DNA from: Anaerolineae bacterium | GTDB lineage: Bacteria; Chloroflexota; Anaerolineae; S140-20 | Assembly (NCBI GenBank): GCA_027021705.1 | Contig: JALUTT010000080.1 | Coordinates: 1-40,489, forward strand | Direction of reading: 5' to 3' | DNA: 40,489 nucleotides | Shown here: positions 1-27,835 of the stretch, one piece after another | Numbering within the stretch: position 1 is the first letter of the stretch | Layout of the letters: every line of letters begins with the position of its first letter | The notes under the pieces: generated by a model | Told to the model about the DNA's origin: nothing | Database searches by the model: none | The model's input: only the letters and a program-made list of their open reading frames with translations | Translations under genes and position numbers: made by a program

Positions 1-58
1 CACCGGCACCCCCTCAGGCGAACTTCGACGGACCGCCTACGGAGAGCTGCCGTTCCCT

Positions 59-214
59 ATCCGTTCAATCCGTTCTCAAATCCGCTGACAGCTATCCGTT
101 CTTAAGCGGATTGCTGTCAACGGATTCAGGGAGCGGATGGAACGGAACGGTCATCCCCCATCCGCTCAATCCGTTCTCAAATCCGCTGACAGCTATCCGT
201 TCTCAAGCGGATTG
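59..214. repeat. Two ~55-bp direct repeats with internal palindromes (REP-like)
   Basis: atccgYtcaatccgttctcaaatccgctgacagctatccgttctYaagcggattg occurs at 59-113 and 160-214 with 2 mismatches. Each copy contains an aatccgct...agcggatt inverted repeat. Confidence 0.8.
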
Positions 215-376
215 AACGGAGCGGAGTGCTCCCAGACTCTAGGCGCGGAGGTACGGAGGCGCGGAGGGCTTCTGGAGCGCCGGCCCTTCTCAGTGCCCTC
301 ACCCCCCTCAGCGGCCTCAGTGATTCTGGGGCCTCGGCGCCTTCCCACCCCCCGCACTTCAAGCCGGGGCCTTTTC

Positions 377-1264
377 CTACCACGTGCCCCGATGAAGGTA
401 CTCCGTCAACCGCCGGCCGGCCGCTACCTCCTCCGCCCTGTCCGGCAGCGGCCACTTCAGCGCCTCGTAGAGGGCGAACCGGTAGAGATCGAAGGCGGAG
501 CGGATCAGTTCCCCGTAGATCAGCGCCGCTGTGACCATCCCCCGGTAGGCGAGCAGGGCCACGACCACCCCGACAGGGATGGCCCACCACGCCCACACCG
601 CCCAGACGACGAAGAGCAACCCCCAGGCAAAGAGCCGGGTCGCTTCGTCCAGCCGCCCCCGGGCGCCGCCGATCTCCTCCCGCACCTCCTTGGGCAGCAA
701 GAACCACAGCCGGGGCCAGCAGACCCCCGCCGCCAGCCCGTACCGGACCTGGGGATACTCCTCCGCCGCCCGCAGGAGGTTGCCCACCCGCGTGGGCATC
801 AGGTGAGCGGGGTCGGCCGGGAGGCGGATCCGCTCCACGTCCAGACGGGCGTACTCGGCCTGCTCCCTCGGGGGGAGGCGGACCGGGTCGCCCTCGCACC
901 GCTCGGCCAGCGCCTGCCACCGCTCCTCCATCTGCCGCACCCGCTTCTCCCACCGCCGGGCCAGGGCGAAGCGGAGCCACCACAGGGGCGGGGGCCAGTA
1001 CCCTTCCACCATCCGCAGCACCGTCTCCTGACCTCCCTCCACCACCGAGGCGGTGAAGGCAACCAGGAGCAGCCCGCCCACCAACACCGCCGCCTGCTCC
1101 GGCGTGGAGCGGGCGGTCCACCAGCAGGCCAGGCGCGTCCAGCCGTATCGGTCGGCGTAGGCCAGCAGCCCCCCGGCCCAGAAGGCGAAGGCGGGGGCCA
1201 GGACGCGGGTGGCCCACTTCCCGGCCAACGATTCGCCGATCTCCTTCCAGAAGGCTTCAATCAC
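377..1264 (-). CDS. Multi-pass membrane protein of unknown function (third gene of the CHAT operon)
   Basis: 295-aa ORF with about 4 hydrophobic segments (VLAPAFAFWAGGLLAY; AAVLVGGLLLVAFTASVV; LFAWGLLFVVWAVWAWW; AIPVGVVVALLAY) and a central soluble region (PTRVGNLLRAAEEYPQVRYGL). GTG start with a GAGGTG RBS, overlapping the upstream stop by 8 bp. Confidence 0.8.
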   Translation of the reverse strand: MIEAFWKEIGESLAGKWATRVLAPAFAFWAGGLLAYADRYGWTRLACWWTARSTPEQAAVLVGGLLLVAFTASVVEGGQETVLRMVEGYWPPPLWWLRFALARRWEKRVRQMEERWQALAERCEGDPVRLPPREQAEYARLDVERIRLPADPAHLMPTRVGNLLRAAEEYPQVRYGLAAGVCWPRLWFLLPKEVREEIGGARGRLDEATRLFAWGLLFVVWAVWAWWAIPVGVVVALLAYRGMVTAALIYGELIRSAFDLYRFALYEALKWPLPDRAEEVAAGRRLTEYLHRGTW

Positions 1265-1688
1265 CGGACCTCACCTCCCATTCCGGCACCAGGTCCACCT
1301 GGTGCTGGGGGCAGCGGAGCCGCTGGCCCCTGTGTTGCAGCCGCCGACGGTAGTGGGAGGGGTCCACCGGGCAGACCATCAGGGTGCCTGCCGGGATGGG
1401 TTCCTCCTCGCCGGGGAGCCTCTCGTAGAGGCGGACGGCGGTCTCCGCCCCGCCCAGCTCCTCCACGATGCGGCCCAGCCGTTCTCGGAGGGTGGGGTAC
1501 TCGGCGATGCGGCCCAGGGCGCGGGTGATGGCTTGTTCCCGATGTTCCGGCGAGCGGGCCTGGCGCAGGTCCTGCTCCAGGAGCCGGGCCAGAGGTTCCC
1601 CCTCCTCCCGTCCCAGCAGATCCGGCAGCTCCGGCTTCAACACCCGGAGCGCCTCGACGTACAGTTCCGTTTCGCTCCTCTCGTGCAT
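1257..1688 (-). CDS. Small protein with C-terminal Cys/His zinc-ribbon-like motif (second gene of the CHAT operon)
   Basis: 143-aa ORF with a helical N-terminal part and C-terminal CPVDPSH...CPQH. GAGGAG RBS upstream; overlaps the next gene. Confidence 0.8.
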   Translation of the reverse strand: MHERSETELYVEALRVLKPELPDLLGREEGEPLARLLEQDLRQARSPEHREQAITRALGRIAEYPTLRERLGRIVEELGGAETAVRLYERLPGEEEPIPAGTLMVCPVDPSHYRRRLQHRGQRLRCPQHQVDLVPEWEVRSGD

Positions 1689-1735
1689 CTTCCCGCTCCT
1701 CTCTTCTCGCGGTTCACCTCTAGCCTCGCCGGGGC

Positions 1736-1777
1736 CTCCCCTCCCCTCTCCCGCGAGCAGGATAGGGGAGAGGGGAG
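1736..1777. repeat. REP-like palindrome between the CHAT gene and the small gene
   Basis: cctcccctctccc ... ggggagaggggagg inverted repeat in the 108-bp intergenic gap. Confidence 0.6.
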
Positions 1778-1796
1778 GAAAGGGGTGAAGCTCCCT

Positions 1797-4700
1797 CTAC
1801 GTTCCCGTATACCCAAACCCTGCCCAGTAGTAGGGATGGGCGAAATCCCGCCCCTCGGGGCGGCGGCGGAGCATATCCCAGAACGCTCCCCGGGCCGTCT
1901 CCTCCGCCATACGGGTGGCGATCAGTTCCGGCAGAGCGGTGCGGAAGAGGGCTTCCTTCTCCTCGTTAGTCGAATCCCGCAGCCAGACCTGGGCCTGCCG
2001 GAGCGCTTGGGGCGGGGCCAGCCCCTCCCCGCGCCAGAGGTCGTAGAAGCGGGCCATCAGGAGGGCGGTGCTGATCTCGCCGACCGCCCACAGGCTCCCC
2101 ACCACCCCGGCCACCCCGGCCTGCAGCAGGCCGGTGGGGAGGCCGATCACCTCCTCGGGGAGTCGGGTGCCCGGCACCGCCGTCTCGCAGGCGGAGAGGA
2201 CGGCCAGCCGCGCCCCCTCCAGGCGCAGGTCGAGGAAGTCGGCCAGGGTGAGGGGGTGGTCCGACTCGGCCATCCGCAGGCCGCTGCGGAGGGGATCGTC
2301 CGGGTCCGCCCAGCCGTGGGTGGAGAAGTGGAGGACGGGGTAGCGGGGGAGCTCCCGGAGGACGGCCTCCCGCGTGGCGGATTCCCCGCCCAACAGCCGC
2401 TGCCGCTCCGGGGGGAAGTGTTCGAGGACGGAGGCCACCTCTTCGTCGGAGAAGCGGAGGGTGCCGTCCGGGTTGTCCACGACGAAGACCCCGTCCGGAG
2501 CGGTGCGGGCAGCGACCCGGCGGGCGGCCCGCAGGGCGTGGGCGCCGGGGGCGTAGGTGATGCAGAGGTCGTCCAGCGCATAGCGGTGGCCGGTGGGCGC
2601 GGCAGGGTCCTCCCGCCAGGCGGCGTGGAGGGGGAGGAGGGAGAGGAGCCCCGTGGGGATGAGGGTGATGGCCCTCACCCCCTCCCCCCGTCCCCCGGTA
2701 GGGGCGACTGGCCGGTCACCCCCGGCGGCGGGGGTGGGGGTGAGGGTTTCCACCACCTCCCCCATCACCGCCTCCCACAGCCAGCGGGTGGTCACGTCCA
2801 GCGTCTGAAACCAGGCCCTGCGGAGCGCCTCTCGGGTCTTGCGGGGAATGCGGCGATCGGTGATGCCGATCCGCCACAGCCGGTACATCGAGAGGTAGCC
2901 GCCACGGGCGGCCTCGATGTCCTCCGGTGCGACCCGGCCCTGCTGCAGGTGGTCGTTGATCCGGCGGTCTTCTTCAGGGGTGGGCGACCAGAGGCGGCGG
3001 TTCAGGGCCTCCTCGGTCAGGTCCGGCAGCCGGACGGCGGTCACCCCGTCGGGGCGACCCGGCAGGTCGCCCCCGGCGTGGACGATGAGGGCCAGGCCGC
3101 CGGCGGGGGTGGCGAGGAGGTAGACGAGGGGGGCATCCCGGGCGGCGGGGAGGACCTGATCGAAGGTGGGGTCTTCCATAAAGTGGGCGAACTCGGGGTA
3201 GACGGCCCCCACCTCCTCCCGAATGGCCTGCTCCGCGGCCTGCACCTCCTCCCAGGCCGCCTTCATCTGTTGCGGCCAATCGGCAGGACGCCGGGGGGAT
3301 TCGCCCTGGGCCAGCAGGTCCCGGAAGCGCTGCCGGGCCTCTTGGTATCGCTGGTGGAGGCGGTTAAACCCCAGGGCGGGCAGCCGTTCCAGATCGCGGC
3401 GGTTCTGTTCCATCGTCTCCCGCAGCAGGCGGGTGCGGCCCGCTTCCAGCGCTTCCACCGCCCGTTCGAGGTCTCCCCGTTGGGCGTGGGCGTAGGCCAG
3501 CCGGGCGGGGATCGCCTGGACCTCCCGCAGCCAGGCGGCTTTCTGTTCGCGCCGGTATTGGACCACGAACAGCCGTCGGATGGTCTGCATCGCGTAGCCG
3601 TAGGCTTCCACTGCCTCGACCCACTCCCGACGCTCCACCGCCCAGTTGCCCCAGTTTCCTCCGGCCATCAGGGCTGCTTCGGGGGCTTTGTCGCTCCCCC
3701 GTTCACAGGCTTTCCGGTAAGCCCGGATCGCCTCCTCCAGGTCCTCCAACCGGCCGGTGCGGGCGTAGCGGTCGCTCAGGCCGGTGCCCAGGTTGGTGAG
3801 GAAGCCGGGGAGGTCGGGGGAGCCTTCCGGGGTGCGGCGGACCGCCTCCCGAGAGGCCCCGATCGCCTCCTCCAGGTCCTCCAGGTGGCCGGTGCGGGCG
3901 TAGCGGTCGCGCAGGCCGGTGCCCAGGTTGGTGAGGTACATAGGGAGGTCTGGGGAGTCGGGCGGGGTGCGGCGGACCGCTTCCCGCCAGACCCCGATCG
4001 CCTCCTCCAGGTCCTCCAAGTGGCCGGTGCGGGCGTAGCGGTCGTGCAGGCCGTTGCCCAGGTTGGTGAGGTACATAGGGAGGTCGGGAGCATCTTCCGG
4101 GGTGCGGCGGATCGCCTCCCGAAAGACCCGTATCGCCTCCTCCAGGTCCTCCATCCGGCCGGTGCGGGCGTAGCGGTCGCTCAGGCCGTTGCCCAGGCTG
4201 TTGAGGTAGCCGGGGAGGTCAGGGGAGTCGGGCGGGGTGCGGCGGACCGCTTCCCGAAAGACTCCGATCGCCTCCTCCAAGTCCTCCATCCGGCCGGTGC
4301 GGGCGTAGCGGTCGCGCAGGCCGGCGCCCAGGCCGGTGAGGATAGAAGGGCGATCGGGGGAGTCTTCTGGGGTGCGGCGGACCGCTTCCCGGTAGACGCG
4401 GATCGCTTCCTCCAGGTCCTCCATCCGGCCGGTGCGGGCGTAGCGGTCGTGCAGGCCGTTGCCCAGGTTGGTGAGGTACATAGGGAGGTCTGGGGAGTCG
4501 GGCGGGGTGCGGCGGACCGCCTCTCGATAGACGCGGACCGCCTCCTCCAGGTCCTCCAAGTGGCCGGTGCGGGCGTAGCGGTCGCGCAGGCCGATGCCCA
4601 GGTTGCTGAGGTACATAGGGAGGTCAGGAGAGTCGGGCGGGGTGCGGCGGACCGCCTCCCGCCAGACCCCGATTGTCTCCTCCAGGTCCTCCATCCGGCC

Positions 4701-7607
4701 GGTGCGGGCGTAGCGGTCGCTCAGGCCGGCGCCCAGGTTGTTGAGGTAGCCGGGGAGGTCAGAGGAGTCGGGCGGGGTGCGGCGGACCGCTTCCCGGTAG
4801 ACGCGGATCGCCTCCTGCAGGTCCTCCAAGTGGCCGGTGCGGGCGTAGCGGTCGCGCAGGCCGGCGCCCAGGTTATTGAGGCGAGAAGGGAAGTCGGGGG
4901 CGTCTTCCGGGGTGAGGCGGACCGCCTCCCGCCAGACCCGTATCGCCTCCTCCAGGTCCTCCAACCGGCCGGTGCGGGCGTAGCGGTCGCGCAGGCCGGC
5001 GCCCAGGTTGGTGAGGTACATAGGGAGGTCGGGAGCATCTTCCGGGGTGCGGCGGACCGCTTCCTGGTAGACGCGGATCGCCTCCTCCAGGTCCTCCATC
5101 CGGCCGGTGCGGGCGTAGCGGTCGCGCAGGCCGGCGCCCAGGCCGGTGAGGATAGAAGGGCGATCGGGGGAGTCTTCTGGGGTGCGGCGGACCGCTTCCT
5201 GGGAGACGCGGATCGCCTCCTCCAGGTCCTCTATCCGGCCGGTGCGGGCGTAGCGGTCGCGCAGGCCGGCGCCCAGGCCGGTGAGGATAGAAGGGCGATC
5301 GGGGGAGTCTTCTGGGGTGCGGCGGACCGCTTCCTGGGAGACGCGGATCGCCTCCTCCAGGTCCTCTATCCGGCCGGTGCGGGCGTAGCGGTCGCGCAGG
5401 CCGGTGCCCAGGTTGTTGAGGTAGCCGGGGAGGTCAGGGGAGTCGGGCGGGGTGCGGCGGACCGCCTCCCGATAGACGCGGATCGCCTCTTCCAGGTCCT
5501 CCAAGTGGCCGGTGCGGGCGTAGCGGTCGTGCAGGCCGTTGCCCAGGTTGGTGAGGTAGCCGGGGAGGTCAGAGGAGTCGGGCGGGGTGCGGCGGACCGC
5601 CTCTCGATAGACGCGGATCGCCTCCTCCAGGTCCTCCATCCGGCCGGTGCGGGCGTAGCGGTTGCTCAGGCCAGTGCCCAGGTTATTGAGGATAGCAGGG
5701 CGGTCGGGGGCGTCTTCCGGGGTGCAGCGGATCGCCTCCCGAAAGACCCGTATCGCCTCCTCCAGGTCCTCCATCCGGCCGGTGCGGGCGTAGCGGGCGC
5801 GCAGGCCGTTGCCCAGGCTGTTGAGGTAGCCGGGGAGGGCGGGGGAGTCGGGCGGGGTGCGACGGACCGCCTCTCGATAGGCCCCGATCGCCTCCTCCAG
5901 GTCCTCCATCCGGCCGGTGCGGGCGTAGCGGGCGCGCAGGCCGTTGCCCAGGCTGTTGAGGTAGCCGGGGAGGTCAGAGGAGTCGGGCGGGGTGCGGCGG
6001 ACCGCCTCCCGAAAGACTCCGATCGCCTCCTCCAAGTCCTCCATCCGGCCGGTGCGGGCGTAGCGGGCGCGCAGGCCGATGCCTAAGTTGTTGAGGTAGC
6101 CGGGGAGGGCGGGGGCGTCTTCCGGGGTGCGGCGGACCGCCTCCCGAAAGACTCCGATCGCCTCCTCCAAGTCCTCCATCCGGCCGGTGCGGGCGTAGCG
6201 GGCGCGCAGGCCGTTGCCCAGGCTGTTGAGGTAGCCGGGGAGGGCGGGGGAGTCTTCCGGGGTGCGGCGGACCGCTTCCCGAAAGACTCCGATCGCCTCC
6301 TCCAAGTCCTCCATCCGGCCGGTGCGGGCGTAGCGGGCGCGCAGGCCGTTGCCCAGGCTGTTGAGGTAGCCGGGGAGGGCGGGGGAGTCGGGCGGGGTGC
6401 GGCGGACCGCCTCCCGCCAGACCCGGATCGCCTCCTCCAGGTCCTCCATCCGGCCGGTGCGGGCGTAGCGGTCGTGCAGGCCGATGCCTAAGTTGCTGAG
6501 GTACATAGGGAGGTCAGGAGAGTCGGGCGGGGTGCGGCGGACCGCCCCCCGCCAGACCCCGATTGCCTCCTCCAGGTCCTCCATCCGGCCGGTGCGGGCG
6601 TAGCGGTCGCTCAGGCCGGTGCCCAGGTTGTTGAGGTACATAGGGAGGTTGGGGGAGTCTTCCGGGGTGCGGCGGACCGCTTCCTGGTAGACGCGGATCG
6701 CTTCCTCCAGGTCCTCCATCCGGCCGGTGCGGGCGTAGTGGGCGCTCAGGCCGATGCCCAGGTTGTTGAGGATAGAAGGGAGGTCGGGGGCATCTTCTGG
6801 GGTGCGGCGGACCGCCTCCTGCCAGAGTGAGAGCGCCCGATCCAGGTCGGCGATCTGGCCCTGCCGCCAGTATCGCCGCAGGTAGGCTCCTCCCGCACCG
6901 TTCCAGGCGGCCAGTTGGAACCGCTCGTCGGCCTGGGCGAAGGCGGGATGGTTCAAGATCCGCTCCCAGGCGGCCACCGCCTCGTTCAAGGCGGCCAGGT
7001 CGCCGGTTTGTTGGTATCGCTGCTCGCCTTCCACAGCGCGGCGGAGGTCCTCCTGAAATTCCGGAGGCACAGGAGGGCCGGTGCCGAGATCGGCGAAGAC
7101 CCGGGCCGCTTCCTCCAGTTTCTCCCGCAGGTCGGGCCGCTCCTCCAATAGCCGTTCCAGGTCTTCCGGGGAGCTGGTCTCGACCCCGGCGGCGGCCAGT
7201 TCGACCAGCAGTTCCCGCAGTTCGGGGGGCATCTGGGCCGCCGCGCGGGCTGCCTCCAGCGCCTGCTCCGGCGTCAGGCCTGCGGCCTCCGCCTGTGCCA
7301 GTGCCTCCGGCGGGAGCATTTTCTCGGCGAAGGCCCGCTCCACCCCCACCTCCCGGCAGCGGCGCAGCAGGGCGCGGTGTTCGTCAAAAACACGGCGGGC
7401 ATTCTCGTCGCCCTGGGCGCGGGCGGCGTCGGCCAGTTGGCCCAGCAGCCCGTCCGCCTCGTCGCTGAGCAGCTCGGGGTGCGCCTCCACGATGCGGCGG
7501 GATTCGGCCCAGGTCTCCGCCTGGATGAAAGCAAAGATCGTTTCCAGCAACTGTCGAGGGTCTGGCCGCCGAGGGCGACGACCGAAGAGCCTGTCCAAGA
7601 ATCCCAT
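1797..7607 (-). CDS. TPR-repeat CHAT-domain (caspase-HetF family) cysteine protease
   Basis: C-terminal CHAT motifs LIPTGLLSLLPLHAA, VLHFSTHG (catalytic His), VLSACET (catalytic Cys), GVVGSLWAV and HPYYWAGF, preceded by 23 tandem 45-aa TPR-like repeats. Start placed at ATG 7607 (MGFLDRLFG) because GGGAGG lies 6 nt upstream; the ORF track starts at 7625. Confidence 0.93.
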   Translation of the reverse strand: MGFLDRLFGRRPRRPDPRQLLETIFAFIQAETWAESRRIVEAHPELLSDEADGLLGQLADAARAQGDENARRVFDEHRALLRRCREVGVERAFAEKMLPPEALAQAEAAGLTPEQALEAARAAAQMPPELRELLVELAAAGVETSSPEDLERLLEERPDLREKLEEAARVFADLGTGPPVPPEFQEDLRRAVEGEQRYQQTGDLAALNEAVAAWERILNHPAFAQADERFQLAAWNGAGGAYLRRYWRQGQIADLDRALSLWQEAVRRTPEDAPDLPSILNNLGIGLSAHYARTGRMEDLEEAIRVYQEAVRRTPEDSPNLPMYLNNLGTGLSDRYARTGRMEDLEEAIGVWRGAVRRTPPDSPDLPMYLSNLGIGLHDRYARTGRMEDLEEAIRVWREAVRRTPPDSPALPGYLNSLGNGLRARYARTGRMEDLEEAIGVFREAVRRTPEDSPALPGYLNSLGNGLRARYARTGRMEDLEEAIGVFREAVRRTPEDAPALPGYLNNLGIGLRARYARTGRMEDLEEAIGVFREAVRRTPPDSSDLPGYLNSLGNGLRARYARTGRMEDLEEAIGAYREAVRRTPPDSPALPGYLNSLGNGLRARYARTGRMEDLEEAIRVFREAIRCTPEDAPDRPAILNNLGTGLSNRYARTGRMEDLEEAIRVYREAVRRTPPDSSDLPGYLTNLGNGLHDRYARTGHLEDLEEAIRVYREAVRRTPPDSPDLPGYLNNLGTGLRDRYARTGRIEDLEEAIRVSQEAVRRTPEDSPDRPSILTGLGAGLRDRYARTGRIEDLEEAIRVSQEAVRRTPEDSPDRPSILTGLGAGLRDRYARTGRMEDLEEAIRVYQEAVRRTPEDAPDLPMYLTNLGAGLRDRYARTGRLEDLEEAIRVWREAVRLTPEDAPDFPSRLNNLGAGLRDRYARTGHLEDLQEAIRVYREAVRRTPPDSSDLPGYLNNLGAGLSDRYARTGRMEDLEETIGVWREAVRRTPPDSPDLPMYLSNLGIGLRDRYARTGHLEDLEEAVRVYREAVRRTPPDSPDLPMYLTNLGNGLHDRYARTGRMEDLEEAIRVYREAVRRTPEDSPDRPSILTGLGAGLRDRYARTGRMEDLEEAIGVFREAVRRTPPDSPDLPGYLNSLGNGLSDRYARTGRMEDLEEAIRVFREAIRRTPEDAPDLPMYLTNLGNGLHDRYARTGHLEDLEEAIGVWREAVRRTPPDSPDLPMYLTNLGTGLRDRYARTGHLEDLEEAIGASREAVRRTPEGSPDLPGFLTNLGTGLSDRYARTGRLEDLEEAIRAYRKACERGSDKAPEAALMAGGNWGNWAVERREWVEAVEAYGYAMQTIRRLFVVQYRREQKAAWLREVQAIPARLAYAHAQRGDLERAVEALEAGRTRLLRETMEQNRRDLERLPALGFNRLHQRYQEARQRFRDLLAQGESPRRPADWPQQMKAAWEEVQAAEQAIREEVGAVYPEFAHFMEDPTFDQVLPAARDAPLVYLLATPAGGLALIVHAGGDLPGRPDGVTAVRLPDLTEEALNRRLWSPTPEEDRRINDHLQQGRVAPEDIEAARGGYLSMYRLWRIGITDRRIPRKTREALRRAWFQTLDVTTRWLWEAVMGEVVETLTPTPAAGGDRPVAPTGGRGEGVRAITLIPTGLLSLLPLHAAWREDPAAPTGHRYALDDLCITYAPGAHALRAARRVAARTAPDGVFVVDNPDGTLRFSDEEVASVLEHFPPERQRLLGGESATREAVLRELPRYPVLHFSTHGWADPDDPLRSGLRMAESDHPLTLADFLDLRLEGARLAVLSACETAVPGTRLPEEVIGLPTGLLQAGVAGVVGSLWAVGEISTALLMARFYDLWRGEGLAPPQALRQAQVWLRDSTNEEKEALFRTALPELIATRMAEETARGAFWDMLRRRPEGRDFAHPYYWAGFGYTGT
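2672..2746. repeat. 75-bp REP-like palindromic element in frame inside the CHAT domain
   Basis: Perfect 11-bp terminal inverted repeat ccctcaccccc/gggggtgaggg enclosing GTAGGGGCGACTGGCCGGTCACCCC. Encodes the Pro/Gly-rich segment LTPTPAAGGDRPVAPTGGRGEGVR. Confidence 0.6.
3678..6782 (-). repeat. Intragenic tandem array: 23 x 135 bp (45-aa TPR-like units)
   Basis: 23 YARTG motifs counted in the translation. The motif cggccggtgcgggcgtag recurs at 135-bp spacing (e.g. 6181, 6316). Confidence 0.95.
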
Positions 7608-7628
7608 CCCTTGCCTCCCATCCACATC

Positions 7629-7749
7629 TCACGTTTCACGCCTCACGCCTCACGTTTCACACTTCACGCTTCACGCTTCACGCCTCACGCCTCACGCTTC
7701 ACGTTTCACGCTTCACGAACCGCCGACCACGGACTGCGGACTGCGGACT
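7629..7749. repeat. Heptamer tandem repeats (TCACGYY x ~12.7, then GCGGACT x ~3)
   Basis: Read directly at 7629-7717 and 7730-7749, immediately upstream of the CHAT gene RBS. Confidence 0.9.
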
Positions 7750-7805
7750 CCCCCCCCAGTTTAGCCCATTTTCCGGCGGGAGGCAAGGGGAGGAACCGGG
7801 CAACG

Positions 7806-8122
7806 ACGGCAGTGCTGAACCACAAAGGGCACCAAGGACACAAAGACCACCAAGGGTGACGAAGAGAAAGCAGCCCTTGGAGCCCTTCGTGCCCGTCGTG
7901 TGCTTGGTGGTCAGACCCGGCACCGCCCGTCCACGGCAGTGCTGAACCACGAAGGGCACCAAGGACACAAAGATCACCAAGGGTGACGAGGAGAGAGCAA
8001 TCCTTTGAGCCCTTTGTGCTCGTCGTGCGCTTGGTGGTCAGACCCGGCACCGCCCGTCCACGGCAGTGCTGAACCACGAAGGGCACCAAGGACACAAAGC
8101 CCACCAAGGGCGACGGAGAGAA
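7806..8122. repeat. 127-bp tandem repeat, about 2.5 copies, each an imperfect hairpin
   Basis: acggcagtgctgaaccacRaagggcaccaaggacacaaag starts at 7806, 7933 and 8060. The second half of each unit (cttYgtg...cttggtggt) is complementary to the first half. Confidence 0.9.
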
Positions 8123-8148
8123 AACCGCGTCGAACCCCCGGCAGGTGC

Positions 8149-9282
8149 TCACGGGCGCAGGACGAGGGGCAGGTATCCGCGCCTGATCGCCGTTCGCGGC
8201 TGAGCGCGTAACGCCTCCACAAGACGGTCCACGTACTCCCGCCGCCGGGCCGGTTCGTCGTAGCTCCAGGCGGTGACGAAGTGGACGATGGCCCCGTCGA
8301 GGGTCGTCTCCGTGCCGCTCACGGTCAGGGATGCCGTCAGGGGCAGCGGCACGTAGACCCCCTCACGGGCCAAGCTGCGGGCCGACAGCTCTGCGTAGAT
8401 CGCCCGCGCAGCCTCAATCGTCCGCTGGGTATCGGTGTAGACGCTCCCGAACTCGCGCCCGTGGGCGTCGTCGTTCTGCGGGTTGGCGGGGTTGTAATCG
8501 CAGGCGTAGACACTGGTATCGCCCAGCGCCGGCACGGTGTGCGTGCCCCAGGGGGCGGGCGGTGTCTGAGCCGCCAGCGCGTCCATACAGTCGGCGTGAG
8601 AGTAAGCGTCGCCCAGGCTGTGCAGGTAGGTGGCGAAAGCCTCCAGGGAGCCGGCCGGCACGGGCATGCTGATCGTCACCGTGCGGGTGATGATGCAGCC
8701 GTTGTTCTGGACCGCCTGCATCAGGGTGAAATCGGTGAGCCGGCCCCAGGCGTAGGCTTCGTACCCCTCCAGCGTCTCGCTGTTCCCCCAGGCCCAATCG
8801 CGCAGGGCGCTCAGGTCGGAGCCCCCTAGGTGGGGAAAGTGGAAAAAGGGTGAGTACGGCCCGAAGCGGGAGGTGACGGCCGACGTATCCGGGTCGAAGC
8901 CGGCCGTGGGCCAGACCTGCCGGGCGCGGTTCTTGCCGGGGCAAGCCAGCAACGGGTTGGGCGGCGCGTAGAACCCCGCGTTGCCGTAGGTATACGAGAC
9001 CGGCGTGCTCGGCAGCACCTCCGAATCCACCAACTGGTCCCAGATCCGCAGCGTGTGGCTGTCTGTGATGGTGAACCCGGCGGCGATTGCCAGAGCCAGG
9101 GTGAGGTCATCGTGCACGGTACTGATCCGACCCTCGGGAAAATCCCCCGTCGGCGGGTAATACGTGCCGTCCCGGTCCCGGAACCCCAGCTCCTCCTCGG
9201 CGAATCCCCAAACCGACACCGCGCCCACCGCCAGGCACAGGCCCAGCGCCACCACCGCGTACAAGAGCCATCGCTGTTTCAT
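8149..9282 (-). CDS. Secreted protein, putative Zn-dependent phospholipase C/P1-nuclease-like fold, with C-terminal YLPLVLR motif
   Basis: Signal peptide MKQRWLLYAVVALGLCLAVGAVSVWG. His/Asp motifs VHDDLT, FFHFPH and YLHSLGDAYSH. Ends GYLPLVLRP. Confidence 0.65.
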   Translation of the reverse strand: MKQRWLLYAVVALGLCLAVGAVSVWGFAEEELGFRDRDGTYYPPTGDFPEGRISTVHDDLTLALAIAAGFTITDSHTLRIWDQLVDSEVLPSTPVSYTYGNAGFYAPPNPLLACPGKNRARQVWPTAGFDPDTSAVTSRFGPYSPFFHFPHLGGSDLSALRDWAWGNSETLEGYEAYAWGRLTDFTLMQAVQNNGCIITRTVTISMPVPAGSLEAFATYLHSLGDAYSHADCMDALAAQTPPAPWGTHTVPALGDTSVYACDYNPANPQNDDAHGREFGSVYTDTQRTIEAARAIYAELSARSLAREGVYVPLPLTASLTVSGTETTLDGAIVHFVTAWSYDEPARRREYVDRLVEALRAQPRTAIRRGYLPLVLRP

Positions 9283-9355
9283 CCTGATCCCCTTTCCGCC
9301 TGTCCGACCCCCTCCCGACCGGGCCGGGTAGCGATTCGTGCATTCGCTCATCCGT

Positions 9356-9649
9356 TCATCCGTTCAGCAGGACGACCGCCCCGGCCGCCTCCAGCCCCAG
9401 GGGGAGGGAGAGCAGGGCGATCACCTGGTGGACCAGGGGGGGATAGGAGGTCACGCTGAAGCCGGTGTACCAGCGGGGCTCCCAAAGCGACCACCAGCCC
9501 CGGCGGTAGTGGTCGGCGAAGAAGAGGTGGACGTAGGCGTCGAAGCTGCGGCGGTAGCGGGCGGCGGCGACCAGGGGCCAATGGAAGGCGAGGGCCAGGG
9601 CCACCGCCTGACGCAGCCGGCGGTCTGGTGAGGAAAGCGGCCTCCCCAT
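9356..9649 (-). pseudogene. Truncated N-terminal fragment of a membrane GT-C-like glycosyltransferase (6-pyruvoyl-tetrahydropterin-synthase-related membrane family)
   Basis: SFDAYVHLFFADHY...WEPRWYTGFSVTSYPPLVHQ resembles the first loop of these normally 500+ aa proteins. The ORF stops after ~97 aa at a short catccgtt repeat. Confidence 0.5.
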
Positions 9650-9723
9650 AGCGTGTCGTTCGCCGACCCGCCCCACGGCAGGCGGGTGCGGAAAACCCGC
9701 CCTACGATGGAACACGAAATGAC

Positions 9724-9818
9724 CCCTCCCGCAGGTTAGGCGCGTTTCCGACGCGAAACCGTGCTTCCAATAGCCCATCGGGGCTGAAAGCGCCTTCGAC
9801 CGGTGACCTGCGGGAGGG
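9724..9818. repeat. Stem-loop/MITE-like element with a 13-bp terminal inverted repeat
   Basis: ccctcccgcaggt (9724-9736) pairs with acctgcgggaggg (9806-9818). Internal hairpins cgcgt-ttccg-acgcg and agccc-atc-gggct. Confidence 0.55.
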
Positions 9819-9854
9819 TAGGCTGAATAGATACGTCCTCAGAAACGCCTGCCC

Positions 9855-10796
9855 TCACGCCGTCAGGGGGAGGGGCACGGACTCCAGCACCTCCCGGACC
9901 ACCTGGCCGGCCGTCCGGCCTCGCAGGCTGCTCTCCGGCTTCAGGAGCAGGCGGTGGGTCAGGGTCAGCGGGGCCATCCGCTTCACATCGTCGGGCAGCA
10001 CGTAGTCCCGGCCCCGCAGGGCGGCCAGCGCCTGAGCGGTCTTGAAGAGGGCCAGGCTGCCCCGGGGGCTGGCCCCCAGCGCCAGGTCGGGGTGCTCCCG
10101 GGTCGCCTGGACCAGCCGGACCACGTATGCCTCCACCGTCTCGTCCACGTGGACCTCCCACACCCGGCGGGCCAGGTCGGGCAGCCTCTCCCCCTCGACC
10201 ACCTGGCCCAGGGATTCGATGGGGTGCTCCCGCTGGAGGCGGCGGAGGATGCGCCGCTCCTCGTCGGCGTCCGGGTAGCCCAGGGAGAGCCGGAGGAGGA
10301 AGCGGTCCAACTGGGCCTCGGGGAGGGGGAAGGTCCCCTCGTACTCGATGGGGTTTTGGGTGGCCAGAACGATGAAGGGGCGGGGGAGGGGGTAGGTCAC
10401 GCCGTCCACCGTCACCTGCCGCTCGCCCATCGCCTCCAGGAGGGCGGACTGGGTGCGGGGGGTGGCCCGGTTGATCTCGTCGGCCAGGAGGACGTGGACG
10501 AAGGCGGGGCCGGGGCGGAACTCGAACTCCCGCGTCTTCTGGTTGAAGACGCTGACACCGGTGATGTCGTTGGGGAGCAGGTCGGGGGTGCACTGGAGCC
10601 GCTTGAAGGAGAGGCCGAGGGAGGCGGCGATGGCGCGGGCGAGCATCGTCTTGCCCACGCCGGGCACGTCCTCGATGAGGACGTGGCCCTCGCACAGGAG
10701 CGCCACGAGCACCATCTCGATGGCCTCCCGCTTCCCCACGATCACCTTCTCCACGTTGGCGATGACCCGTTGGGCGAAGGACTGTACGGGGTTCAC
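9855..10796 (-). CDS. moxR: MoxR-family AAA+ ATPase
   Basis: [13 protein letters not shown]alker [22 protein letters not shown] and [22 protein letters not shown]. Confidence 0.95.
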
Positions 10797-11239
10797 GTCC
10801 CCTCCCGTTCCAGCAGGATGGTCACCGGGCCGTCGTTGTGGATTTCGACCAGCATGTGGGCACCGAAGCGGCCCGTCTGAACGGGAACGCCGGCCTGGCG
10901 CAGCAGCTCGGCGAAGCGGTCCACCAGCGGGGCCGCGATCTCCGGCGGGGCGGCCCGGGTGAAGCTGGGCCGTCGCCCCTTGCGGGCGTCCCCGTAGAGG
11001 GTGAACTGGGAGACGACCAGGGCCTCCCCTCCCACGTCCAGGAGGGAGGCGTTCATCTTGCCCGCCTCGTCCTCGAAGATGCGCAGGCCGGCGATCTTGC
11101 GGGCCAGCCAGGCCGCCTCGGCCTCGCCGTCGTTGTGGGTCACGCCTAGCAGGACGACGACCCCCCGTCCGATGGCTCCGACGACCTGACCGTCCACCGT
11201 CACCGAAGCCCGGCTTACCCGTTGGACGACCGCACGCAT
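10793..11239 (-). CDS. dtd: D-aminoacyl-tRNA deacylase
   Basis: [31 protein letters not shown] and NDGPVT signature motifs. Confidence 0.97.
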
Positions 11240-11387
11240 AGGACCTCCAAGTGTGTTGCGTTAGAGCTTATCAACTCTTGATCCTTCGTGTCTTCGATCT
11301 GCATTCCCACCTCCTCTCCACCGCTGCAACGCTCCCCACAAAGCCTCTAACGCCAACTTCGTAGGCCCTAGTGTGTTGGGTTGGGTT

Positions 11388-12524
11388 TCAGGCATTGCCC
11401 AATACGGCGCTTACCTGGAGGATCTCATCTTCGGTGTTGTAGCCGTGGGGGGAGACGCGCAGGTAGCCCTCTCGCAGCGAGAGGACCACACCGGCCGTCC
11501 GCAACCGTTCCCAGGCTGCCTTAGGGTCCCCCGCTGGCTTAAAGGTGACGATAGCAGACCGCCGCCGAGGCTCCCGGTTGCTCAGAATTCGGTATCCCCG
11601 ACGTTCCAGGTCCTCGATCAGCATCTCCGTCAGATGGTGGGTCCAGGCTTCGATGGCCTCGACGCCCGTTTCCAGGAGAAAGCGGACCGCTGTCAGCAGC
11701 CCGACGATCCCTGCGTAGTTGTAGGTGCCCAGCTCCAGCCGTTGGGCGTGGGGCAGGAAGGTCAGGTCGTAGTTCAGCCAACTGTTCCGCTCACCCCCCA
11801 CGCTGACGGGGCCGGCGAAGGGAGGCGGCAAGCGCTCCAGGAGTTCCCGGCGGACGTAGAGGAAGCCCTGCCCCGCTGGCCCCAGCAGCCACTTCACCCC
11901 GCCGCAGGCCAGGAAGTCCACCGGCGTGGCCTGCACGTCCAGGGGGATCACGCCCAGCGACTGAATGGCGTCCACGACAAAGTAAACGCCGTGCTCCCGA
12001 CACCAGGTCCCGATGGCCTCCAGGTCGGTGCGGAAGCCGGTGAGGAATTGGACGCTGCTGGTGGTCACCGCCCGGGTGCGGGCGTCGGCATACTGCTCCA
12101 GCAGGTCCACCGTCAGCCCGCCGCCCTCGTTGGGCACGATCCGCGCCTCAACGCCTCGCCGGCCCAGGTTCTTCCAAGGAAAAACGTTGGACGGGAACTC
12201 GACATCGCACAGGATCACGTTGTCCCCCGGTTCCAGGGGCAGCATATGGGCAACCAGGTTGAGCCCTTCGGTGGTGTTCTGGACCAGGGCGATCTCCTCA
12301 GGGGAGGCGTGGATCAGGCGGGCGAGGGCAGCCCGCAGGTCGGCGATCACATCCTTATACATCTCCCAGGCTGCCGGCGTCTGGCGAGCCTCCAGGTAGG
12401 CGGTCATCGCTTCCCGGACGGGTCGGGAGAGCGTTCCTGTGGCCGCATGGTCCAGGTAGGCCACCTGCTCAGCCACGGGGAAGAGGGCACGCACGGCGTT
12501 CAAGTTGTAGCTGGGTGAGGCCAT
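11388..12524 (-). CDS. Class V PLP-dependent aminotransferase (cysteine desulfurase/selenocysteine lyase-like)
   Basis: YLDHAATG, VVDAIQSLG, GGVKWLLGPAG (PLP lysine) and LRVSPHGYN. Start set at MASPSY with a GGAGG RBS. Confidence 0.9.
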   Translation of the reverse strand: MASPSYNLNAVRALFPVAEQVAYLDHAATGTLSRPVREAMTAYLEARQTPAAWEMYKDVIADLRAALARLIHASPEEIALVQNTTEGLNLVAHMLPLEPGDNVILCDVEFPSNVFPWKNLGRRGVEARIVPNEGGGLTVDLLEQYADARTRAVTTSSVQFLTGFRTDLEAIGTWCREHGVYFVVDAIQSLGVIPLDVQATPVDFLACGGVKWLLGPAGQGFLYVRRELLERLPPPFAGPVSVGGERNSWLNYDLTFLPHAQRLELGTYNYAGIVGLLTAVRFLLETGVEAIEAWTHHLTEMLIEDLERRGYRILSNREPRRRSAIVTFKPAGDPKAAWERLRTAGVVLSLREGYLRVSPHGYNTEDEILQVSAVLGNA

Positions 12525-18135: not shown

Positions 18136-19209
18136 TTAAAGGGCTCGGTCTTGGTTTCCACTTCTTTCCGGGGTCACCTCATAGCTCTCTGAGGATTCGA
18201 GGAGAGCCATCTGGGAGGCCCTCGGGAGCTTCCTCTCCTCGAGAGCCTCATCTTCTGTCCCCTGTTCAGCTTGTTCAGCGAACAAGGGGAGCTGCTGACG
18301 TAGGTCCGTAAAGCGGAACTTGGACGCCTCCAGATACTCCTCGACCAGCTCGAAAGCCAGCCACCGCCGTCCCAGCCGCTCAGCGACCTCGCCCGTCACA
18401 TTGCTTCCGGCAAAGGGATCGAGTACCAGATCACCGGGGTCAGTCAAGAATTTGATGAAGAACTCTGGGAGGCCGTGGGGGAACCGGGCGGGGTGGGGCT
18501 TTATCCCACGGCGTCGGCACTCTCGCAAGTAGGCACTATTGGAATCCGTGTTGGCCAGGATCAGGAGGTTAGGGGGGATAGAGCCTTTGTTGTCCTTGGC
18601 AAAGTGCTCGGAGATGTCGTGTCCTGACGGGCGGCGCATAGGCTTGTAGCCCCGTTCCAGCAATTTCTTCATCGAATCGCTATAGGGCTGGAGCACACGC
18701 CAGTTGCTGGCTTTTGGGAAAGGGGTCTTGGAGAGCCACCAGATTGGGTCAACGGCGTCCTTCACGCGGATGCGTCGCACCGTTACCCACTCAGCGGGTG
18801 ATGGTAGCTTGGAAGGGTTGTACCAGTAGAACTCCTGGGCCAGGTGGAATCCCACGGTCTTGCACAAGGCGATGAGCAGCTCAAAATGGTATAGCGAGCG
18901 GGTTGGCTGTCCTTTGACCCACGTCCCGCCGATGTCAATCACCAGGCTTCCGCTCTCTTTGAGCACCCGTTTGAACTCCAGGGCGAAATCCAGGAACCAG
19001 GGCACATAGTCTTCGGCCTCTACGTTGCCGTACTCCTTCTTGCGTTTCAGGGCGAAGGGAGGGGATGTGACGATCAGGTCAACGGTCTCGGGCTCCATCT
19101 GGCGCAGATAGTTCAGCGCATCCCCCAGGTAAGCCGCTCCATACGGTGTTGTGTAAAAAGGCTCCGTTTTGAAGGAAAAGTGGGCCATCGTACTCCCTTC
19201 TCTTGTCAC
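18136..19209 (-). CDS. Site-specific N4-cytosine DNA methyltransferase, beta class, M.PvuII-like
   Basis: TSPPFALKRKKEYGN (motif IV) precedes DPFAGSNVTG (motif I). NPSKLPSPAEWV, RVKDAV, RPSGHDI and HPARFP match the M.PvuII sequence as I recall it. GTGA overlap with the upstream endonuclease stop. Confidence 0.9.
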   Translation of the reverse strand: MTREGSTMAHFSFKTEPFYTTPYGAAYLGDALNYLRQMEPETVDLIVTSPPFALKRKKEYGNVEAEDYVPWFLDFALEFKRVLKESGSLVIDIGGTWVKGQPTRSLYHFELLIALCKTVGFHLAQEFYWYNPSKLPSPAEWVTVRRIRVKDAVDPIWWLSKTPFPKASNWRVLQPYSDSMKKLLERGYKPMRRPSGHDISEHFAKDNKGSIPPNLLILANTDSNSAYLRECRRRGIKPHPARFPHGLPEFFIKFLTDPGDLVLDPFAGSNVTGEVAERLGRRWLAFELVEEYLEASKFRFTDLRQQLPLFAEQAEQGTEDEALEERKLPRASQMALLESSESYEVTPERSGNQDRAL

Positions 19210-20621
19210 CGATCTGTCAAGTAGTCGGTACGCTCCTTGATCTTCATCGCTCGCTCGGCTTTGCTGTTCAAGATGGCTACGATCTCTGTCGGGTCGCGGC
19301 TGATGCGGTTCAGCTCTGAGCCGTTAAGCAGGATTACGTTGAGGTTGGAAGTCCTCATCACATGGTTGGCGTAGCCGTAGGCATCTCTGGTAAAGTCGCC
19401 TGTTGTCACGAGCATCACCACATTGGAGTAGATGAAGGTCAGGGACAGTCCTACTTCCCGGGCCACATCGTCCAACCGAACGGTCGCTGTGTTCTTCGCC
19501 TGAATCTGCCAGCGGCTGAAGATGAGCCGTGCTCCTTCAACAATCACGTCTACCTCAGCACCGCCAGTCTCCGCACTCCGAGTACGCCATCCTTTGAAGT
19601 CAAGATCGAGCAGGCGCGTCAAGTAGATGGCAAGAAGTTCTAATGCCTGCCCCTTGGTGTGCTTGTCAGGTGACTTGAGGTCCGCCAGAATTTGAGAGAG
19701 GGGACGCTCGAAGACCTCCTTGGGAACCAGGCCGGCCTTCTCGGCCGCGGCTGCGAGAATGGGATCGGAGACCTCCTCACGAAATTTAGAAGTACGGGAG
19801 ACTTCGTAAGGTTTCGCCCCCCGCCCTGCTGTGGATTTTGTCACCTGGATGTACCCCAGGTCCTGCAAGGGGAACAGAACCGCTTTTGGCAACTGCTTAT
19901 GGTTGTACTCTACGCCGTAGAGGGCGCTTGCCAAATCTGCCACTTTATTGGCTACAAGGGGATCGGGTTCGGCGATGCGGGTCAGAGCTCTCAGGAAGGC
20001 CCGTTGTGCTGCGTCGAGATGGGTTAGGCGATCAATGGCGTCCAGCCCTATCCCCAGCAGAGCTTCCAAGCGCTCCCGGTTGACCTCGTATAGCCTTGGA
20101 CCACCCTTTGCCCCTGCGTCGAAGATGCCTGCCTGGGCCAGCCATAGGCGCATACTGCTGAGGTGTACAGCACCGCGAGGAACGTGGAGCCCCCGTTGCT
20201 CCAAGCGCTTTCTCAGCGTGTGCAGAGTGATCTTCTCACCGGCTTGCTGCATCGCCTCGATGGTCTCCACAAAGATGAGGCCACGCCGATGGAGTAAGAT
20301 ATGCTTGGCAAAAGCCTCGTAGAGAGCGGTTGGATCATTCACGAGAGCCAGCAAGTCTCTCGCCAAAGGGGTGGGAGTCGCTCCGTGTTCGTCCAGCAGC
20401 CCATATGCTCGCAAGGCCAGCACGGTGTTATCGGCCAGCTTCCACCGCTGCGCTTCGGCGTGGGACGCGAAGAAAGCTTCCCGGATAGCCTCGGTGATTT
20501 TATCCCGGTCCCCTGCATAAACGTGGAGGATCTGCAAGACCTGGGGTAGGTCAACCTGATTGGGGCTGAATTGAGCGCCGAAAGGGATCTCGCTTTTCTT
20601 GCCCACCGGTGCCTCGACCAC
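19206..20621 (-). CDS. Restriction endonuclease with a C-terminal Mrr-like catalytic domain
   Basis: KGQALELLA...GGAEVDVIVE...WQIQAKN...LVTTGDFT is an Mrr-type (D/E)-D-QxK pattern. Translationally coupled to the methyltransferase; visibly lower GC than the flanks. Confidence 0.8.
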   Translation of the reverse strand: MVEAPVGKKSEIPFGAQFSPNQVDLPQVLQILHVYAGDRDKITEAIREAFFASHAEAQRWKLADNTVLALRAYGLLDEHGATPTPLARDLLALVNDPTALYEAFAKHILLHRRGLIFVETIEAMQQAGEKITLHTLRKRLEQRGLHVPRGAVHLSSMRLWLAQAGIFDAGAKGGPRLYEVNRERLEALLGIGLDAIDRLTHLDAAQRAFLRALTRIAEPDPLVANKVADLASALYGVEYNHKQLPKAVLFPLQDLGYIQVTKSTAGRGAKPYEVSRTSKFREEVSDPILAAAAEKAGLVPKEVFERPLSQILADLKSPDKHTKGQALELLAIYLTRLLDLDFKGWRTRSAETGGAEVDVIVEGARLIFSRWQIQAKNTATVRLDDVAREVGLSLTFIYSNVVMLVTTGDFTRDAYGYANHVMRTSNLNVILLNGSELNRISRDPTEIVAILNSKAERAMKIKERTDYLTDR

Positions 20622-26328: not shown

Positions 26329-26365
26329 TGGCTGACTTCCCGCGCGAGAACAGATCGTGAGTTGG

Positions 26366-27004
26366 TCACGAGACCGGGGCATCCAGCAGGCCCCGGCGGA
26401 GGAGTTCCGCCTGCAAGGCCTCGGGGGTGGTGAAGGTGATGGTCTGCATCCCCAGGGCCGCGGCGGCCTGGGTGTTCCGCTCCATATCGTCAACGAAGAG
26501 GGCCTCCTCGGGGCGCACCCCCAGCTTCTCCAGGGTGAGCCGGTAGATCGCCTCCTCCGGTTTGGCCAGCCCTTCGGCTGCCGAACTGATGATGACGTCG
26601 AAGAGCCCGTGCAGACCTAGTTCCTCCGTCAGCAGGCGATCCAGGTTGGGGTCTGCCGTGTTGCTCAGCACGGCCAGCCGATAGCGCTTGTGGAGTTGCC
26701 GTAGCAAAGATCGCATCAGGGGAGGCACATGGCCTTTGAAGGCAAGCAATTGGTCCTTGAACGCCCGCACCTGATCGGGGTCGGTGACCCCCAGGGTGGC
26801 GAAGACCTCCTGCCAGAACTGTGGCTCAGAGATCTGGCCCCGCTTCGCCTTCTGCCAGGCCTCGCTGGTGAAGAGGTAGTTCCAGAAGGCCTCGGCGGTC
26901 ATCCCGAAGTGGGCTGCCACGGCTGCCCGCTGGGCCAGCATCTCCTGGGGATCTGGCGGGATCTCCAGCACGTTACCGAAATCGAAAATGATTGCCCGGA
27001 TCAC
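26366..27004 (-). CDS. HAD-superfamily phosphatase (YihX-like)
   Basis: IIFDFGNV, VLSNT, KPEEAIY and LFVDD. GTG start. Confidence 0.9.
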   Translation of the reverse strand: MIRAIIFDFGNVLEIPPDPQEMLAQRAAVAAHFGMTAEAFWNYLFTSEAWQKAKRGQISEPQFWQEVFATLGVTDPDQVRAFKDQLLAFKGHVPPLMRSLLRQLHKRYRLAVLSNTADPNLDRLLTEELGLHGLFDVIISSAAEGLAKPEEAIYRLTLEKLGVRPEEALFVDDMERNTQAAAALGMQTITFTTPEALQAELLRRGLLDAPVS

Positions 27005-27570: not shown

Positions 27571-27642
27571 TGGGGGAGGCAGGATTCGAACCCGCAACCA
27601 ACCGGTTATGAGCCGGCCGCTCTGCCCTTGAGCTACTCCCCC
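27571..27642 (-). tRNA. tRNA with CAT anticodon (Ile2 or elongator Met; not initiator)
   Basis: GGGGGAGTAGCTCAAGGGCAGAGCGGCCGGCT-CAT-AACCGGTTGGTTGCGGGTTCGAATCCTGCCTCCCCCA. G1:C72 is paired and CCA is not encoded. Confidence 0.93.
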
Positions 27643-27684
27643 GTGCGGCCAGCGAAGCGGACAGCGTGCAGCAGGGGGATAAGG

Positions 27685-27755
27685 AGCGGGCGACGGGAAT
27701 CGAACCCGTACCATTGGCTTGGAAGGCCAAGGCGCTACCTTTACGCTACGCCCGC
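27685..27755 (-). tRNA. tRNA-Gly(TCC)
   Basis: GCGGGCGTAGCGTAAAGGTAGCGCCTTGGCCT-TCC-AAGCCAATGGTACGGGTTCGATTCCCGTCGCCCGCT. Confidence 0.95.
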
Positions 27756-27762
27756 TGGTCAG

Positions 27763-27835
27763 TCGGGGCGGCCGGACTTGAACCGGCGACCTCTGCGTCC
27801 CAAACGCAGCGCGCTGCCGACTGCGCCACACCCCG
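27763..27835 (-). tRNA. tRNA-Pro(TGG)
   Basis: CGGGGTGTGGCGCAGTCGGCAGCGCGCTGCGTT-TGG-GACGCAGAGGTCGCCGGTTCAAGTCCGGCCGCCCCGA. Confidence 0.95.

Follow-up and report, generated by a model that had tools for sequence, protein, structure and literature searches.

The first 40.5 kb of contig JALUTT010000080.1 from an Anaerolineae bacterium (assembly GCA_027021705.1), a stretch of 40,489 nucleotides that we analysed as a whole and refer to as the window, carry near their beginning three adjacent minus-strand genes encoding a large TPR-CHAT protease, a small protein and a membrane protein. Together they look like a cell-death or defence module, so far undescribed, that a protease would trigger. Across relatives of this locus the small protein and the membrane protein form a constant pair, the TPR-CHAT and Peptidase_C14 branches of the caspase fold are interchangeable as its protease partner, and the gene order varies. 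The reading that we favour, with moderate confidence, is a three-component membrane module gated by a protease, of the kind found in bacterial conflict (abortive infection or programmed death), in which a sensor protease would cut the small protein and so release a membrane effector.

The interval from 377 to 7625 is filled by three minus-strand open reading frames (ORFs) with a coding-type GC content at third codon positions (0.86–0.93). The original prediction, made from the letters of the window without database searches, had described three co-oriented, tightly linked genes, and the ORFs, the strand, the 108-bp gap between the protease and small-protein genes and the 8-bp overlap between the small-protein and membrane-protein genes are all as it gave them. 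The protease gene (1797–7607, minus strand) encodes the expected 1936 residues from an ATG at 7607, the likely start, with GGGAGG 7–12 nt upstream; the longest ORF reaches a GTG at 7625. It is followed by the genes for the 143-residue small protein (P0002; 1257–1688, minus strand) and the 295-residue membrane protein (P0003; 377–1264, minus strand, GTG start), each the representative of an unnamed family. The PADLOC comparison that had been proposed was run, and neither of these two proteins is matched at E ≤ 0.1 by Pfam, NCBIfam or PADLOC, if a chance hit of 14 bits for the small protein is disregarded; as had been anticipated, no named effector or described system was recognised for the trio in these collections. 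For both proteins the ESM Atlas returned unnamed clusters only, and a profile search of PDB sequences with the two family alignments gave nothing below E 0.028.

Conservation of the arrangement was scored in loci retrieved through the membrane protein alone. From 226 confirmed relatives the best 80 were used, and six-frame translations of these loci were scanned with hidden Markov models (HMMs) built from the small proteins, the CHAT domains and Pfam-verified Peptidase_C14 domains. In 76 of the 80 loci, a set rich in related cyanobacteria whose counts are not phylogenetically independent and which also served to build the HMMs (the Pfam checks giving partial control), a small-protein homolog lies within 1.5 kb upstream of the membrane gene on the same strand. 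Two of the four remaining loci have less than 240 nt of upstream sequence, and another of them, L026, has a divergent ORF ending in a ribbon-like motif. A caspase-fold protease is present on the same strand in 64 of the 80 loci (57 within 2.5 kb and seven more at 2.5–7 kb), and in 42 of the 47 that have at least 3 kb on both sides. The 57 close proteases divide into 37 CHAT genes upstream and one downstream of the pair, and five C14 genes upstream and 14 downstream. RefSeq gene calls give the same picture on two plasmids, with the order hypothetical, hypothetical, ‘caspase family protein’ on a conjugative Nostoc plasmid and hypothetical, hypothetical, ‘CHAT domain-containing protein’ on a Rhodococcus plasmid.

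The original prediction had raised the question of whether homologs of the two smaller genes occur mostly without a CHAT gene. By the above counts most are accompanied by a caspase-fold protease, which speaks in favour of that prediction, but the partner is not always CHAT, the nearest protease being a Peptidase_C14 in 26 of the 64 loci, usually fused to an nSTAND1 or NACHT NTPase with WD40 or HEAT repeats. The C14 partners are mostly Caspase-nSTAND1-WD40 proteins, Caspase-NACHT-HEAT proteins or short stand-alone caspases, and some adjoin EAD10-STAND NTPases. In the complete linked CHAT proteins the CHAT domain is always C-terminal (23 of 23), with named TPR families ahead of it in 20. Two to three tandem CHAT genes, sometimes with a C14 gene, lie upstream of a single small/membrane pair in five loci (L066, L067, L071, L074 and L076), which suggests that several sensors may share one output. 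In six others (L031, L050, L054, L056, L062 and L078) an extra ORF of about 190–250 residues stands between the small and the membrane genes.

The genome of the window has 13 CHAT matches in 5.19 Mb, the other matches lying on 12 other contigs and several of them in ORFs of 1000–1500 residues, so that adjacency of a CHAT gene to the pair by chance should be a matter of a few percent at most. Only one of the 13 adjoins the pair, which is single-copy in the genome and thus singles out a particular subset of the caspase-fold proteases. An explanation of the trio as chance neighbours with no functional link could appeal to the generic nature of the repeats that flank it; it is already contradicted by the linkage counts, which extend over at least six phylum-level groups with conserved strand in several gene orders, and by gene fusions, and we give it almost no credence.

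These fusions occur in five cyanobacterial loci (L025, L027, L030, L033 and L037), where the ORF just upstream of the membrane gene encodes 408–459 residues. It consists of a C14 caspase, whose SGHG and DxCH motifs are intact, followed by a low-complexity linker rich in Gly, Ser and Glu, then by AKGFEPLPG and finally by a ribbon of the form CPxxDC...CSIH. Here the caspase has replaced the helical N-terminal domain of the small protein, and the linker motif and the ribbon have stayed together, always beside the membrane gene. In the simplest reading of this arrangement it is the motif and ribbon that cooperate with the membrane protein, and the N-terminal domain would be the connector to the protease where the two are separate polypeptides, a role that agrees with a caspase-recruitment-type domain. 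The fusions also set a motif with a basic P1 residue between the tether and the caspase; Arg or Lys is the residue after which metacaspases and orthocaspases cut. Two ORFs of 449–454 residues (P0206 and P0248) were considered as fusions of the small and the membrane protein and set aside, as their ribbon region is scrambled and they look like merged or frame-shifted gene calls. A search for longer fused forms of either protein found none, which is weak evidence.

The anatomy of the small protein was read from an alignment of 36 family members. The N-terminal domain comprises five helices (about residues 4–91; 1416–1679, minus strand), the C-terminal module is zinc-ribbon-like (1302–1373, minus strand), and between them stands a conserved linker motif, R86-L-Y-E-R-L-P-G93 (1410–1433, minus strand). 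In the AlphaFold2 model the five helices are confident (residues 6–87, predicted local distance difference test (pLDDT) about 95), as is a beta module at about residues 101–140, and pLDDT falls to 51–67 over residues 81–100, where the motif lies in the lowest-confidence stretch of the model. The family consensus of the linker is [KR]-[GSN]-[FY]-x-x-L-[PA]-G, with Lys or Arg first in 33 of the 36 aligned members; a cruder regular-expression scan of 77 family members found the motif in 69 and Lys or Arg in 50. A conserved motif within a flexible linker is what marks a site of cleavage or docking, and we regard this stretch as a candidate for either. The protein ends as originally described, with C106-P-x4-H112 followed by C126-P-x-H129. 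Both C106 and C126 are invariant in 36 of 36 members and each is usually followed by Pro, and the partner ligands (His, Asp or Cys at the position of H112, and H129) vary. ESM Atlas structure neighbours include heavy-metal-binding ribbon domains at TM-scores of 0.32–0.58, and metal binding by the module is putative.

When the model of the N-terminal domain was submitted to VIA-align, 14 of the 50 entries listed were titled CARD, with Z values of 5.3–6.8 over 71–79 residues at a root-mean-square deviation of 2.7–4.1, all of them under the Z of 8 from which the tool regards matches between helical bundles as secure, and of a size that common helical arrangements can produce. Four more matches cover regions that we take to be the CARDs of Apaf-1, RIG-I, CED-4/CED-3 and cIAP1. 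We therefore treat the CARD-like nature of the N-terminal domain as a well-motivated lead rather than a finding. A precedent exists in bacterial CARD-like domains, which are required for protease-dependent effector activation in the systems described by Wein et al. (2023, PMC10312443). A possible though rather doubtful elaboration would make the small protein a free-standing bacterial CARD-type adaptor, whose ribbon would dock on the helical membrane ‘executioner’ while a caspase-fold protease is recruited and fires the executioner by cutting the basic linker. If true, prokaryotes would have a widespread caspase-CARD-membrane death axis, made up of two unnamed families without a solved relative and distinct from gasdermin, EACC1 and Pepco.

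The membrane protein had been described as having about four transmembrane segments. Strongly hydrophobic 19-residue segments were found at 57–75, 217–235 and 231–249 and a weaker one at about 20–40, and the AlphaFold2 model is all-helical (pLDDT 93.7, predicted TM-score 0.87), in agreement with a predicted set of about four membrane helices. These form two membrane hairpins with a helical domain of about 125 residues between them, and the invariant residues noted for this central domain are E87-G88, P157, G161-N162, E168, Y175, W183-x-R185, D259 and R292. Since the other proteins of the system are without a signal peptide or hydrophobic segment, the N-terminus, central domain and C-terminus of the membrane protein would be placed in the cytoplasm. 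A complex prediction of the membrane with the small protein, run without controls, gave an interface score (ipSAE) of 0.01 against a mark of 0.32 and says nothing either way. No fold relative emerged: Foldseek against the PDB returned nothing at E ≤ 0.001, and the best hits of a wide VIA-align search (Z up to 6.3) were unrelated helical proteins with no clear fold relative among them. Two members of the family (P0232 and P0257) are about 600 residues long, with a helical-looking C-terminal extension of 300 residues that contains further hydrophobic segments.

Relatives of the membrane protein, at 89% to about 40% identity, come from Chloroflexi, many cyanobacteria, a deltaproteobacterial metagenome-assembled genome (MAG) and a Methanotrichaceae archaeon MAG, and all are annotated ‘hypothetical protein’. 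The family is large: a profile built from 79 members reaches 6762 clusters of 50% identity when E ≤ 0.001 is allowed, of which 4901 remain at E ≤ 1e-10 and 1014 at E ≤ 1e-30. Its members come from Chloroflexi, cyanobacteria, actinomycetes, Acidobacteria, Bacteroidota, sulfur-oxidising gammaproteobacteria and from at least one archaeal MAG.

The protease of the window carries its CHAT domain at the C-terminus (1809–2789, minus strand; Pfam PF12770, 9.6e-54). The domain scores 183.2 bits against a cut-off of 24, and the intact catalytic pair that had been noted is present as H1764 (FSTHG, codon 2316–2318) and C1807 (LSACET, codon 2187–2189), both of which are conserved without exception in the 43 CHAT domains of the clade that were aligned. 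Ahead of it lies a TPR-type repeat array (3722–6819, minus strand) with a 135-bp unit in 22.9 copies at 87% matches, a copy number that may be an assembly estimate since a short-read assembly could misjudge it. The 45-residue repeats include 22 exact copies of RYARTG spaced 45 residues apart, and they match Pfam TPR_10 and TPR-S (PF20308, 110.9 bits against a gathering threshold of 27.6). The closest homolog (L010) has only 1289 residues, and repeat number therefore differs between relatives of the protease. The array is presumably a sensor or a scaffold. The N-terminal helical region (6825–7607, minus strand) has no Pfam family and is conserved in some linked CHAT proteins elsewhere. The idea that it shares a helical domain with the small protein was rejected at the sequence level (hhalign probability 0.9%).

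From these parts we infer, in line with the original prediction, that the repeats act as the sensor, the small protein as the substrate or adaptor and the membrane protein as the output; these roles are suggested by the caspase-ribbon fusions, the CARD-like model and the conserved motif in the low-confidence linker. The constant core would be a small cytoplasmic protein, made up of a CARD-like domain, a linker with a basic motif and a zinc ribbon, together with an integral membrane protein of about four helices. The variable partner would be a caspase-fold protease equipped with a sensor or switch of its own: in the window a long TPR array, elsewhere a STAND NTPase with WD40 or HEAT repeats. 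Binding of a trigger by the TPR array would activate the CHAT dyad (H1764/C1807), and the small protein would bridge the protease and the membrane protein, with its motif and ribbon towards the latter and its N-terminal domain facing the protease or standing in for it. The protease would then cut at the conserved [KR]-x-[FY]-x-x-L-P-G linker, and the membrane protein so released would compromise the membrane, leading to death or dormancy. Proteolytic activation of protease-linked pore formers is established for EACC1, Pepco and gasdermin in the account of Evans et al. (2025, PMC12642450). This precedent argues for the order of events given above, as does the pattern of a constant pair beside a variable sensor.

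The direction of signalling could also be the reverse. The membrane pair may act upstream, the four-helix protein sensing an event at the envelope or membrane such as phage injection or membrane stress and the ribbon/CARD-like protein recruiting or freeing the protease, whose real substrates would then be elsewhere in the cell. In the fusions the caspase would equally be tethered to such a platform at the membrane, the membrane protein could offer a signalling surface in its large conserved cytoplasmic domain, which has many invariant polar residues, and a similar sensor role has been proposed for the single-transmembrane EACC1 partner of caspases in the treatment of Kaur et al. (2020, PMC7159879). 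However, the protease partners already carry TPR-S, STAND NTPases and WD40 or HEAT repeats, making a second sensor less parsimonious, and the constant-versus-variable pattern fits a constant effector and a variable sensor. Moreover Evans et al. (2025, PMC12642450) report that EACC1, first proposed as a sensor, is a pore former activated by cleavage. We consider this reversed order the main rival, if an unlikely one.

The three genes with their intact dyad, the conservation of their linkage, the fusions, the sizes of the families and the patchy occurrence are observed; direction of signalling, cleavage, membrane damage and a role in defence are inferred. Several observations weigh against a protease-gated membrane effector. 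The membrane protein resembles no known pore former in Foldseek, VIA-align or PDB profile searches. Beyond the low Z values of the CARD matches, Foldseek with the model of the small protein found nothing in the PDB at E ≤ 0.001, and none of the 36 small proteins matched a Pfam death-fold or EAD family. Behind its basic position the linker motif has Leu here, as opposed to Gly or Ser in most members. In five of the 47 well-flanked loci (L026, L028, L055, L079 and L082) the pair has no caspase-type gene among the scanned neighbours and sits in housekeeping-looking surroundings. The neighbours of the trio in the window are also mostly housekeeping genes, the sole other defence-type genes nearby, a methylase and an Mrr-type nuclease, lying about 10.5 kb away.

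Housekeeping neighbours in the window, and pairs elsewhere that stand among such genes without a protease, would suit regulated proteolysis outside defence, with the small protein as a regulator in development, programmed cell death or membrane-protein quality control of filamentous or multicellular bacteria. The family is found chiefly in Chloroflexi, filamentous cyanobacteria, actinomycetes, Beggiatoa-like bacteria and Acidobacteria. Against this stands the patchy occurrence within the class, with matches in 28 of 201 genomes of the same class and in none of the three other sampled genomes of the same family. Members of the membrane family and the module are also found on plasmids, one of them conjugative, the sensor repeats are highly variable and some loci have tandem caspase-fold genes, all of which is more typical of conflict systems. 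We judge a role outside defence to be decidedly improbable. The patchy distribution, plasmid carriage and tandem caspase-fold genes favour a conflict role and are not proof of it; a search of 50,697 phage records found no homolog, which is neutral.

The assembly amounts to 183 contigs at about 70% GC, and the nearest homologs of the proteins of the window are from Chloroflexi and Anaerolineae. The original prediction had drawn attention to repeat clusters bracketing the operon; they are present at both flanks but are not specific to it, their families being scattered genome-wide. Upstream, at 7629–8123 (no strand), are a 7-bp unit (consensus TCACGCT on the plus strand) repeated 12.7 times at 7629–7717, which stops about 20 nt before the start codon of the protease, and a 127-bp unit repeated 2.5 times at 7806–8123, whose family has 40 matches across the genome. 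Downstream, at 1–376 (no strand), are dispersed repeats that reach the end of the contig and whose family has 248. Both dispersed families often form long tandem arrays and often sit at contig ends, and a dispersed repeat probably ended the contig at base 1 of the window. As members of genome-wide families the flanking repeats lie outside the system and are uninformative about this operon.

Further upstream, at 8149–10796, a gene for a MoxR (AAA_3) ATPase (9855–10796) is followed by ORFs of 140 and 400 residues that have no Pfam hit and are not the usual DUF58/vWA partner; the 400-residue ORF has a hydrophobic N-terminus and the 140-residue ORF may not be a real gene. A link between this operon and the trio was considered and rejected, the two ORFs, MoxR and Dtd recurring in none of the 80 loci, and we therefore delimit the system to three genes. 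A low-GC island at 18136–20621 (56–62% against about 70%) encodes an N6/N4 DNA methylase and a 471-residue protein that contains an Mrr-type restriction endonuclease domain; the two are probably a restriction-modification pair that was acquired. Elsewhere in the window are a 790-residue protein with a Mg-chelatase-like AAA+ domain and a C-terminal vWA domain (24121–26493) and a cluster of three tRNA genes on the minus strand (27571–27835).

Effectors under the control of proteases are coming to be seen as one of the main principles of bacterial immunity, and a recent survey counts ten such modules (Evans et al. 2025, PMC12642450); as that survey enumerates them in its text, the small/membrane pair is not among the ten. 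Full-text literature searches, which took in Kaur 2020, Kaur 2021, Wein 2023, Dore 2024 and Evans 2025 and left supplementary tables and Burroughs & Aravind 2020 outside their scope, returned no description of it. Profile tests separate the pair from gasdermin, EACC1 and CATASP, and the published descriptions, so far as they go, set it apart from Pepco, MBL, alpha/beta-hydrolase, MPE, CalpT and Csx30.

The EACC1-caspase systems, as Kaur et al. (2020, PMC7159879) present them, are alike in having a constant membrane-associated partner beside a caspase-fold protease fused to variable sensor or STAND modules, and they occur in the same multicellular-type phyla. EACC1 is however one small single-transmembrane protein, whereas here a soluble CARD-like/zinc-ribbon protein is combined with a protein of about 300 residues and about four helices, and Pfam gave no hit of any sort for the membrane protein, the small protein (its chance hit aside) or the 36 small-family members. 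In gasdermin systems with CARD-bearing proteases a protease likewise switches on an effector that damages the membrane, and a CARD-like domain is needed for the step between the two, as Wein et al. (2023, PMC10312443) describe. There the CARD-like domain is at the N-terminus of a trypsin-like protease, whereas here it is on a separate small protein and the protease is CHAT or C14. The effector candidate here is an integral helical membrane protein and no gasdermin; the Pfam results for both proteins contain no gasdermin match.

Craspase (type III-E), in which the TPR-CHAT protein Csx29 cleaves Csx30, shares with the trio the TPR-CHAT architecture and adjacent small substrate genes, according to the account in PMC10028731. 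With the Csx29 model (NCBIfam NF041237), whose cut-off is 300, the protease of the window scores 42.1 bits, and the match is confined to the CHAT part; no cas family was found among the window ORFs scanned, the tandem repeats in 1–12000 are not CRISPR-like and the small proteins here are unrelated to any NCBIfam model. CATRA-CATASP systems also tie a small protein to a caspase-type protease (as relayed by Evans et al. 2025, PMC12642450; Pfam PF20271), and an identity with CATASP was rejected: PF20271 is unmatched in this genome and among the 36 small-family members, and above its cut-off in 401 Chloroflexota genomes. A PADLOC profile for Borvo (BovA, a single-gene CHAT defence) gave E 0.0013 and 15.8 bits over 93 CHAT residues only, in keeping with generic CHAT similarity, and the vWA-MoxR ternary systems, in the terms of Kaur et al. 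(2020), do not correspond, the two ORFs between MoxR and the protease having no vWA or other Pfam hit. Pepco and Trypco again place a small partner gene beside a sensor-fused protease and are activated by cleavage of a tail or linker in the description of Evans et al. (2025, PMC12642450). Pepco is there a 117-residue beta-barrel former, whereas the small protein here is helical with a ribbon and always comes with a separate membrane protein.

The logic of a sensor-fused protease beside a latent effector is thus already known, and it is the two-protein effector/adaptor unit that appears undescribed. If the protease-gated reading is true, the unit would bring to the bacterial roots of caspase signalling a helical membrane effector and a stand-alone CARD-like adaptor, both of them new, with a predicted cut at R86 in the linker of the small protein.

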